Assembly: GCF_001677475.2 (NCBI RefSeq)
Contig: NZ_CP015229.1
Strand: one strand, 5' to 3'
DNA length: 64,000 nt
Source of the DNA: Escherichia coli
GTDB taxonomy: Bacteria; Pseudomonadota; Gammaproteobacteria; Enterobacterales; Enterobacteriaceae
Shown: positions 1,023 to 2,627 of the stretch, piece by piece
Position numbering within the stretch: the first letter of the stretch is position 1
Layout of the letters: each line of letters starts with the position of its first letter
The notes under the pieces: model-generated
Told to the model about the DNA's origin: nothing
Seen by the model: the letters and a program-made list of their open reading frames with translations, nothing else
Database searches by the model: none
Program-made: the position numbers and the translations under genes

Positions 1023-1364
1023 TTAACAGAGTTTTTCAGCTCGTTCTATAAACGGTGCCAGACTCATTTTTTCGCCGGGATTGTTAGGATCATTAATCTG
1101 AATCACCGAAATGGGTTGGGCTTTAGTCTTCCCACTGGCAACTTCCTTTTGTGCGATATCGTTTAAAGGATACTGCACGAGGGTACTTGGGTTGATGACA
1201 TACAAAGCATTACCCGGTCGGCAAGTCAGCATCACCTCTTCGCGATTAAACGCCCATTTGTCTTTACCCACTTCAAAACGGCTGACGGTAATCACCTGCG
1301 GTGCAGCCAGCGCCGCTGCAGAACTGGTGAGTAACAGAAACGCCAGAATACTTTTTTTCATCAT
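1023..1364 (-). CDS. yebY: Periplasmic DUF2511-family protein with signal peptide
   Basis: 113 aa ORF; N-terminal [22 protein letters not shown] signal peptide; first gene downstream of yebZ in the yobA-yebZ-yebY order. Confidence 0.85.
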
Positions 1365-1376
1365 TTTCGTAATCCA

Positions 1377-2249
1377 TCAAAAAGGTTCGAGAGTCGCAAG
1401 CAGGCTGATGATCACCAGCACTACCGCACCTATCGCCCATTCGAGTTTAGTCATCCACACAAACCAGGGAGCCGCACGATCCTCATCCTGCCTCATGCGC
1501 GGTACAAGAACATAACGATTAGCCAGCGCGATGACCACCATAATCATCACCAGGATGGCTTTGAGCAATAAGAGTTGGCCCCAGTAAGTCGTAAGCGTGG
1601 GGGGAAATCCGGTAATCAACAATGCATTAAGCACGCCGCTTGCCAGTACGCCGATCACCGCAAAATGCCCGCACCAGGAAAAACGCATCAGCGCCTGAAT
1701 AGCCTGGTGTCGCCAACGGCCTTTAATGAGTTGCATACACCAGAGCACCGGCAGTAATCCCCCAAACCACGCCGCCGCACAAATCAGGTGAATCGCGTGA
1801 TTAGTCTGATGGATTTTCGCCGTTACCCCTTCATTCAGCGTCGCATGCCCGACTCCCGCCAGCAGAATAAATTGCGCGGTAGTGAGCATAAACAGCAAAC
1901 GTGGCATATTCCGCGGTTGCATAAGGGCGACGATCAACGTTACGAGGGCGAGAACAATTTGCCATAACCAGACGCCACCAAACTGCGTTTGTAAAACAGC
2001 CTGCCAAATATTTGGCGAAAATACATCTGTCCATCCCGTTCCCATCAACCCGCCCTGAACAGCGAGCATTGCAGTGGCACTGATCAAGCTCCAGATGGCA
2101 GCGTACTGTTGTAAACGCAGAAAACGCTTCGCCAGCAAGCGACGAATCGTTAAGGGGGCCAGCCAGGCACCGTACATTGCGAAGCCAAAAACCAGCATCA
2201 GCGAGGTGAAATGGATAAATCGCAGCGCGATCCAGGTAAACGCCAGCAT
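1377..2249 (-). CDS. yebZ: CopD-family inner-membrane protein
   Basis: 290 aa hydrophobic multi-pass ORF; 12 bp from yebY and 3 bp from yobA. Confidence 0.85.
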   Translation of the reverse strand: MLAFTWIALRFIHFTSLMLVFGFAMYGAWLAPLTIRRLLAKRFLRLQQYAAIWSLISATAMLAVQGGLMGTGWTDVFSPNIWQAVLQTQFGGVWLWQIVLALVTLIVALMQPRNMPRLLFMLTTAQFILLAGVGHATLNEGVTAKIHQTNHAIHLICAAAWFGGLLPVLWCMQLIKGRWRHQAIQALMRFSWCGHFAVIGVLASGVLNALLITGFPPTLTTYWGQLLLLKAILVMIMVVIALANRYVLVPRMRQDEDRAAPWFVWMTKLEWAIGAVVLVIISLLATLEPF

Positions 2250-2252
2250 GAT

Positions 2253-2627
2253 TTATTTCACGCTAAAGGTGTAGTGTCCTTTCGTTTTATGCCCATCCAC
2301 CGAAACAACATGCCAGTCAACGGTGTAGGTTCCGGGTTTCAGCGAATCGGCCAGTGGAACAATCAGTTGCTTTTGGTCCTGCTCATTCCGCTTCGCCGGT
2401 AATGTTTTAATATTTTCGTTTTTTGACCCCGTGATTTTTGCACCACTGAATCCTGTTTCAACGCCTTCCGAGAAGTTTAAAGTAATTGCCTGCGGGGCAG
2501 CTGTCACTTGCGCGTTTGCCGCAGGATACTGATGCGTTAAATGCGCATGTGCCCAGACGGAAGGTGTCACCAACGAAGTGGTCAGGATTGCCAGCGCGTA
2601 GCGAAGGGAGCGTGCAGTTGAAGTCAT
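2253..2627 (-). CDS. yobA: CopC-family periplasmic copper-binding protein
   Basis: 124 aa ORF with signal peptide; mature protein begins HAHLTHQYP, typical of the CopC copper site. Confidence 0.85.
   Translation of the reverse strand: MTSTARSLRYALAILTTSLVTPSVWAHAHLTHQYPAANAQVTAAPQAITLNFSEGVETGFSGAKITGSKNENIKTLPAKRNEQDQKQLIVPLADSLKPGTYTVDWHVVSVDGHKTKGHYTFSVK

Follow-up and report, generated by a model that had tools for sequence, protein, structure and literature searches.

The three genes yobA, yebZ and yebY lie on the minus strand of an Escherichia coli DNA of 64,000 nucleotides, which is the whole stretch analysed here and is referred to as the window. We consider this locus with high confidence to be the E. 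coli AZY operon, a dedicated low-level copper-uptake system. The system is already published and the window carries an ordinary allele of it. AZY has been presented as the first described system that is widespread and specific for copper and brings this metal into the cytoplasm of bacteria (PMC11923076). An earlier note on this DNA regarded the physiological role of the genes as poorly defined; this view is outdated, as roles in copper import feeding mar activation and in NDH-2 activity have been published (PMC8689200, PMC11923076). Our own analysis shows the anatomy of the genes, their families, the functional residues, the kept synteny, the lack of CueR/CusR operators and the predicted FnrS duplex; copper binding, transport, the effects of YobA and YebY and the links to mar and NDH-2 are taken here from the literature.

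According to the reading preferred here, exported YobA would bind one Cu(II) in the periplasm via His27, Asp111 and His113 and would dock on YebZ, an eight-helix inner-membrane protein of the CopD family. YebZ would move the copper to the cytoplasm using His135 and His154 on the periplasmic side. YebY, a disulfide-bonded small periplasmic protein, would damp the import, its mode of braking being presumptive. The imported copper would serve signalling through MarR and CueR over detoxification, with copper-dependent inactivation of MarR leading to mar-mediated resistance, and YobA and YebY would additionally support membrane NDH-2 activity. A single transcript may start at a weak promoter of the sigma-70-like type, some 35 nt ahead of yobA, and end at a hairpin common with ryeA. 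Under anaerobic conditions FnrS would pair along the entire short leader up to and including the start codon, ribosome-binding site included, and thereby switch translation off.

The earlier note had described three tightly packed minus-strand genes with spacers of 3 bp and 12 bp. The ORF listing and a direct reading of the letters agree with this exactly:

yobA, 2253-2627, minus strand: 124 aa, ATG...TAA.
yebZ, 1377-2249, minus strand: 290 aa, ATG...TGA.
yebY, 1023-1364, minus strand: 113 aa, ATG...TAA.

The spacer between yobA and yebZ reads ATC in the window and that between yebZ and yebY reads TGGATTACGAAA. The locus is flanked upstream by the divergent holE and downstream by sdsR/ryeA. 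The remaining ORFs overlapping 1023-2627 are short, antisense or out-of-frame. Of 5426 complete E. coli genomes, 5425 contain a stretch of 2.3 kb comprising the locus, identically annotated (yebY, copD, yobA, holE, yobB); over this stretch the closest strain is KV7 (99.9%). Families and synteny together place the resemblance of yobA-yebZ-yebY to the known system far beyond chance.

Domain searches place YobA and YebZ in the two families proposed for them earlier, CopC and CopD. YobA matches Pfam CopC (PF04234) with 2.9e-27 and 95.9 bits (cut-off 23.3) over residues 27-123, the NCBIfam YobA equivalog with 261.3 bits (cut-off 129) and the NCBIfam CopC equivalog with 140.8 bits (cut-off 95). Among solved structures it matches PcoC (1ix2, 1.1e-14), CopC (1m42, 2.1e-11) and the CopC domain of YcnJ (9c14, 5.2e-11). 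Its description as a CopC-like periplasmic protein is therefore confirmed. The following elements were located in YobA:

Signal peptide, 2550-2627, minus strand: codons 1-26, ending in VWA (...SVWA then HAHL).
His27, 2547-2549, minus strand: first mature residue.
Asp111, 2295-2297, minus strand.
His113, 2289-2291, minus strand.

The cleavage site is placed before His27 on the basis of the sequence and of the purified mature protein (PMC8689200). His27, Asp111 and His113 are invariant across six genera. Of the N-terminal HxH copper site put forward in the earlier note, the motif itself stands, since mature YobA starts with His27-Ala-His29 and His29 is likewise invariant across the six genera. 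The assignment of the ligands does not stand: the Cu(II) ligands of YobA are the N-terminal His27, Asp111 and His113, and His29 is not a modelled ligand (PMC8689200). Over the whole protein there is no Met beyond the initiator Met1, and a Met-rich Cu(I) loop is absent. YobA is for this reason, judged by its sequence, a member of the Cu(II)-only majority class of CopC rather than of the two-site CopC/PcoC subclass binding both Cu(I) and Cu(II). For K-12 YobA, binding of a single Cu(II) at a KD of ~3 nM and no binding of Cu(I) are reported (PMC8689200). The window protein differs from K-12 YobA by A2T, located in the signal peptide, and by P68S.

YebZ is a CopD-like membrane protein as proposed: it is placed in CopD by Pfam (PF05425, 1.5e-26, 93.3 bits, cut-off 32.1) and by the NCBIfam CopD equivalog (298.9 bits, cut-off 195, residues 4-290). 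A search for solved structures with a sequence match to YebZ gave none. Eight hydropathy peaks are found at residues 7-25, 51-69, 92-110, 118-136, 153-171, 196-214, 225-243 and 269-287, and these eight segments are assigned from hydropathy alone. The loop that joins segments 4 and 5 is bordered by two histidines, both invariant in six genera:

YebZ His135, 1845-1847, minus strand: end of segment 4.
YebZ His154, 1788-1790, minus strand: start of segment 5.

Copper uptake by YebZ requires both of them (PMC11923076). Transport of copper into the cytoplasm by K-12 YebZ was concluded from overexpression and ICP measurements and from a CueR reporter (PMC11923076); the transport evidence is to be read as evidence from overexpression. 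As compared to K-12, the window YebZ carries H49Y, V52I and I93V.

YebY falls into Pfam DUF2511 (PF10709) with 6.5e-45 and 151.9 bits (cut-off 21). It matches the solved structure PDB 7n0j with 1.5e-57 over residues 21-113, the 7n0j chain beginning at residue 21, which bears out the small periplasmic DUF2511 partner named in the earlier note. The YebY structure shows an MlbQ-like fold with a disulfide, and copper is bound weakly and only once the protein is reduced (PMC8689200). Exactly two cysteines are present, and both are invariant in 21 diverse homologues:

YebY signal peptide, 1305-1364, minus strand: codons 1-20.
YebY Cys48, 1221-1223, minus strand: disulfide.
YebY Cys113, 1026-1028, minus strand: disulfide, C-terminal residue.

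Between the window and K-12, YebY differs by N81K and D91N.

Copper-responsive operators were searched with patterns which we take to be the consensus sequences, CCTTCC-N7-GGAAGG for the CueR box and ATKACAANNTTGTMAT for the CusR/PcoR/HprR box, allowing up to 3 mismatches. As positive controls, the copA promoter and the spacer between cusR and cusC of K-12 give perfect matches to the patterns. At ≤3 mismatches there is neither a CueR box nor a CusR/HprR box in 2628-2765, and the CueR/CusR operator that the earlier note had suggested to look for upstream of yobA is absent at this threshold. Two 'copper boxes' at -34 and -22 upstream of yobA have been published (PMC8689200). In the window they correspond to the following element:

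'Copper boxes', 2644-2661, minus strand: everted repeat TGTAA-N8-ATTACA, with TGTAA at 2657-2661 and ATTACA at 2644-2649.

The two halves face outward, which is opposite to the arrangement of the CusR box. When the intergenic regions between holE and yobA of six genera are aligned, conservation of the TGTAA half does not extend to Salmonella, Klebsiella, Enterobacter, Kosakonia and Pluralibacter, and the conserved portion of the element coincides with the Shine-Dalgarno and FnrS site. Everted and lacking the TGTAA half in five other genera, the 'copper boxes' are probably not a conserved operator; as far as the alignment goes, they are probably specific to E. coli.

The same intergenic region holds a candidate promoter and a short leader:

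Candidate sigma-70-type promoter, 2663-2691, minus strand: -35-like TCGACT at 2686-2691, 17-bp spacer, -10-like TATGCT at 2663-2668.
5' leader and translation-initiation region, 2624-2654, minus strand: Shine-Dalgarno AAGGAA at 2636-2641 and predicted FnrS site.

The -10-like TATGCT is located 35 nt before the yobA ATG. Invariant in the six-genus alignment are CTCGAC, TTAT.CT and the Shine-Dalgarno sequence AAGGAAT. We infer that the operon is transcribed from a weak sigma-70-like promoter at 2663-2691. Generic promoter and terminator scans returned chance-level matches, all of them within coding sequence; the candidate promoter was missed by the generic scan because only 8 of 12 positions match.

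yobA-yebZY is among the operons repressed through FnrS (Myers et al. 2013, PMC3688515; also PMC8689200). The predicted FnrS site on yobA extends from -27 to +4 relative to the A of the ATG. The predicted duplex of K-12 FnrS nt 38-70 with yobA comprises 25 pairs at -22.2 kcal/mol, an energy reached by 0 of 1000 shuffles, and within it the region of FnrS nt 50-60 would pair with yobA AAAAAGGAA. With the E. coli FnrS sequence as query, the predicted duplex has -20.6 kcal/mol in Salmonella and is weaker, at -10 to -14 kcal/mol, in Klebsiella, Enterobacter, Kosakonia and Pluralibacter. If the candidate promoter is right, the predicted FnrS pairing spans nearly the entire leader.

Downstream of yebY the following elements are found, the two RNAs by Rfam:

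Putative intrinsic terminator hairpin after yebY, 952-991, minus strand: AAAAACCGCC...GGGCGGTTTTT, fold of -19.8 kcal/mol.
SraC/RyeA, 758-902, plus strand.
SdsR, 762-861, minus strand.

The hairpin is likely bidirectional, since an A-run and a T-run flank it, and likely common to yebY and the convergent ryeA, which in the K-12 annotation ends 28 nt from the yebY stop; on both sides it would function as a terminator. It was missed by the generic scan because it is long and interrupted. In the yobA leader and the operon interior, Rfam recognised neither a riboswitch nor any other RNA family, the downstream SraC/RyeA and SdsR being the only matches.

Each of the eight Enterobacteriaceae taxa examined retains this arrangement of holE and yobA-yebZ-yebY. 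Spacers measure 1-4 bp and 12-18 bp in Salmonella, Klebsiella, Enterobacter, Kosakonia and Pluralibacter, and the order is identical in E. albertii and Citrobacter. Co-occurrence is covered by published neighbourhood analyses (5804 copD genes; YebY network), and the twelve genomic contexts targeted by us agree with them. Identity between genera is 47-71% for YobA, 50-65% for YebZ, 70-83% for YebY and 82-92% for HolE; against E. coli, ExoX shows 84-88% and PtrB 82-85%. Between E. coli and E. albertii, dN/dS amounts to 0.08-0.09 for yobA, yebZ and yebY and to ~0.015-0.018 for holE and exoX. The AZY values in this pair are about 5 times those of the flanking genes and far below 1. This indicates weaker purifying selection on the AZY genes, not gene-wide positive selection. 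Positive selection was considered as the cause of the low identity of YobA and YebZ and is, in its gene-wide form, unsupported by dN/dS of 0.08-0.09.

The tight coupling of the three genes is not a general property of yebY. Of representative YebY genes, only about 52% have copC and copD in their neighbourhood, and among AZY-type loci the copD-adjacent order and tight spacing are kept in >97% (PMC8689200). With only 65 clusters (50% identity) out of 1.84 billion representatives, the family of YebY is a small one; it corresponds to phrog_2950 and is present in ten phage records. In the two phage records inspected, PSP3 and Midge, the DUF2511 gene follows cI at a distance of 8 nt and has int on its other side. 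Five distant members had a readable context. Two of these are orphans that occupy the syntenic yebF...yebV...proQ site with neither yobA nor yebZ; the other three lie directly downstream of the repressor gene in P2/186-like prophages. A CI/XerD context of YebY homologues has been mentioned without interpretation (PMC8689200). YebY thus also occurs without both CopC and CopD, on chromosomes as well as in phages, and its coupling to them is not universal.

Could the locus be a Cop/Pco-type copper-resistance module, induced by copper via CueR or CusRS, in which CopC and CopD would sequester or otherwise deal with a surplus of copper in the periplasm? Plasmid copper-resistance operons encode homologous CopC/PcoC and CopD, which would fit, as would the two upstream 'copper boxes' (PMC8689200), but we regard this as extremely improbable, as 2628-2765 lacks CueR and CusR/HprR boxes at ≤3 mismatches while the controls are positive, conservation of the 'copper box' halves does not extend beyond E. 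coli, the neighbours are holE and sdsR/ryeA and not copA/copB/copRS, and YobA is without a Met-rich Cu(I) site. Moreover, deletion of AZY leaves copper tolerance and oxidant sensitivity unaffected, and its overexpression does not rescue a copA mutant (PMC8689200). More weight, even if it is still rather unlikely, is given to periplasmic copper delivery by YobA and YebY, to cuproproteins of the membrane or periplasm such as NDH-2, as the main job, with import by YebZ a secondary or overexpression effect. NDH-2 activity is supported by YobA and YebY and not by YebZ: NDH-2-dependent NADH oxidation is lower in delta-yobA and delta-yebY, and delta-yebZ membranes are normal (Hadley et al. 2021, PMC8689200). 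The retention of YebY without YebZ in some lineages points the same way. Against this reading, overexpressed YebZ accumulates copper specifically and in dependence on His135/His154, the cytoplasmic copper signal of a CueR-based reporter is 3-4-fold lower in delta-AZY, and mar induction, for which AZY is needed, is cut by 80-90% (Palmer et al. 2025, PMC11923076). In addition, yebZ is in frame and in order at all Enterobacteriaceae loci examined, with dN/dS of ~0.09.

It is slightly less probable again that YebY is independent of the copper pair and merely shares its transcript, being a general or mobile periplasmic factor concerned with the envelope, antimicrobial peptides or phages. Membership in phrog_2950, homologues that immediately follow the immunity-repressor gene of P2/186-like phages and prophages, homologues standing alone at the syntenic chromosomal site and an evolution far slower than that of YobA and YebZ speak in favour of it. 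The persistence of YebY without CopC/CopD implies that its primary function may not concern copper. Yet YebY lowers copper accumulation when co-expressed with YebZ (PMC11923076), delta-yebY has lower NDH-2 activity (PMC8689200), and the copD-adjacent order holds in >97% of the AZY-type loci and in all eight taxa mentioned above. The copper-uptake system remains the preferred reading, against which are to be set the weak constraint on YobA and YebZ, at 50-60% identity between genera as compared with 82-92% for the flanking genes, the lineages and phages that keep YebY alone, and the weaker predicted FnrS duplex in four genera. The earlier claim of a single functional unit is upheld for E. coli, where only the triple deletion lowers copper entry and YobA raises and YebY lowers the YebZ-dependent uptake (PMC11923076). 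Because delta-yebZ membranes keep normal NDH-2 activity, the division of labour among YobA, YebZ and YebY given here is provisional.

AZY links copper to mar-dependent multidrug resistance and is needed for copper-dependent resistance to norfloxacin, ciprofloxacin and ampicillin (PMC11923076). Our comparative results are small additions to the known system and may guide work on YebY, its least understood component. Some novelty lies only in the phage-borne and orphan YebY and in the fast-evolving pair YobA/YebZ, and here we are speculative. The position of the phage homologues after the repressor suggests expression in the lysogen. One may imagine that YebY is not a dedicated copper partner but a member of a small, mobile group of proteins with a modulating role in the periplasm, with phage copies acting on host YebZ/YobA, although we think this quite doubtful. 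If true, phage YebY might be a lysogenic-conversion 'copper-import brake', useful where hosts kill bacteria with copper, or alternatively might exclude something entering via the YebZ/YobA route. The fast divergence of YobA/YebZ beside the slow YebY could then reflect an interplay with the phage copies.

Among known systems the closest is AZY of K-12 (yobA b1841, yebZ b1840, yebY b1839), in which genes, order, spacers, flanks and lengths are identical to the window. Over the 138 bp upstream, two positions differ (-91, -80), and 2-3 residues differ per protein, all functional residues being identical. The Cop/Pco systems (Pseudomonas syringae cop, E. coli pco) share the CopC/PcoC and CopD/PcoD families. 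Unlike them, AZY is without CopA/CopB/CopRS, a copper-responsive operator, a Cu(I) site and a tolerance phenotype, and it has an extra DUF2511 gene. In Bacillus subtilis YcnJ, as in AZY, a CopC domain and a CopD membrane domain acquire copper, a parallel drawn in PMC11923076; in YcnJ, however, the two are fused in one polypeptide and a DUF2511 partner is absent. Its partner is YcnI (DUF1775), and it is regulated by YcnK/CsoR, according to literature cited in PMC8689200. Regarding YebY, the only other studied DUF2511 member is MlbQ, the lantibiotic self-resistance lipoprotein of Microbispora, which has the same Pfam family and fold (PMC8689200); it is an actinobacterial lipoprotein encoded in an ABC-transporter/lantibiotic-immunity operon outside a copper context. 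Orf28 of phage PSP3 and its relatives (Peduoviridae, phrog_2950), with CopC/CopD not nearby, are just 31-33% identical to E. coli YebY, but are DUF2511 proteins of equal length with a signal peptide and share with it the invariant Gly33, Trp37, Cys48, Tyr65 and Cys113.

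The genes of the yobA-yebZ-yebY operon have not diverged evenly. When window positions 1377-2627 were compared with the corresponding loci of Salmonella (L004), Klebsiella (L005), Enterobacter (L006), Kosakonia (L007), Pluralibacter (L008), Escherichia albertii (L016) and Citrobacter (L017), YobA and YebZ were 47-71% identical from genus to genus within the Enterobacteriaceae, their operon partner YebY 70-83%, and the proteins encoded in the flanks (HolE, ExoX, PtrB) 82-92%. Between E. coli and E. albertii, dN/dS was 0.08-0.09 for the three operon genes and 0.015-0.018 for neighbouring genes. 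No mention of the faster divergence of YobA and YebZ was found in the two papers on the operon (PMC8689200, PMC11923076).

YebY is also encoded apart from its partners. Orphan chromosomal yebY genes, 43-44% identical and lacking yobA or yebZ, were found at three loci that share one general neighbourhood with the operon (yebF, DUF1480/yebV, proQ, prc):

L009, 4001-4333, orphan yebY
L021, 4001-4348, orphan yebY
L022, 2933-3280, orphan yebY

YebY can thus be maintained where the copper proteins YobA and YebZ are missing. Moreover, P2/186-like phages and prophages carry DUF2511/YebY homologues (phrog_2950, 31-36% identical) directly 3' of the immunity repressor gene:

L014 (phage PSP3), 3495-3833, homologue between cI and int
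L015 (phage Midge), 3495-3833, homologue between cI and int
L012 and L013, 4001-4342, homologue between cI and int
L010 and L011, 4001-4339, homologue directly 3' of the immunity repressor gene
L020, 4001-4342, homologue directly 3' of the immunity repressor gene

All of these phage and prophage homologues have kept their signal peptide, along with the invariant residues (two Cys, Gly, Trp and Tyr). Given their position directly behind the immunity repressor gene, they are probably expressed in lysogens. In L010 and L011, the P2/186-like prophage remnant carrying the homologue adjoins the host's own copD-yebY.

Directly downstream of yebY in E. coli lie two overlapping, convergent sRNA genes, identified by Rfam:

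758-902, plus strand, SraC/RyeA (175 bits; full extent of ryeA 724-995)
762-861, minus strand, SdsR/RyeB (114 bits; full extent of sdsR 762-865)

Since 28 nt separate the end of ryeA from the yebY stop codon in the K-12 annotation, a hairpin at 952-991 is probably a terminator common to yebY and ryeA. Where E. coli has sdsR/ryeA-pphA, lambdoid prophages begin a few hundred bases 3' of yebY in three other genera:

L004 (Salmonella), 4733-8339, integrase, Exc, RecT and exonuclease VIII
L006 (Enterobacter), 4662-6902, integrase and Exc
L007 (Kosakonia), 4672-8345, integrase, Exc, RecT and exonuclease VIII

In Salmonella, the sdsR/ryeA locus has been described as a hot spot for insertions.

Elsewhere in the window, ATTACAAATTTGTCGT (10434-10449, plus strand) matches the CusR/HprR box pattern with one mismatch; by a rough estimate, about 0.07 such matches are expected. 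It falls in the 36-bp gap between minus-strand ORFs of 603 and 213 aa, whose lengths fit putative edd and eda, and may be a chance match or a site of another regulator.

On the yobA side of the operon, the mechanical holE ORF (2679-2996, plus strand, 105 aa) is overlong; profile matches and annotation begin at residue 30, whose ATG lies at 2766, and the resulting theta subunit has 76 aa. The yobA-holE intergenic region is thus 138 bp, as the earlier note had assumed. Beyond holE lies yobB:

3098-3754, plus strand, yobB CDS (start region 3068-3112)

It encodes a CN-hydrolase family protein of 218 aa and is found in E. coli, Enterobacter, Pluralibacter and Citrobacter; E. albertii keeps a 91-aa remnant, and none lies between holE and exoX at the Salmonella, Klebsiella and Kosakonia loci. 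When the start regions of 61 ORFs across the window were ranked by predicted pairing with the sRNA FnrS, that of yobB came first. No link between yobB and FnrS was found in the literature searched. The duplex predicted for FnrS nucleotides 37-72 and the yobB leader (TGCAGTCATTTTGAAAAGGAAGTCATTATG) has -26.5 kcal/mol (-19.9 in Citrobacter) and is stronger than the one predicted for FnrS and yobA; judged by this predicted pairing, yobB, which holE separates from yobA, may be a target of FnrS that has gone unreported.
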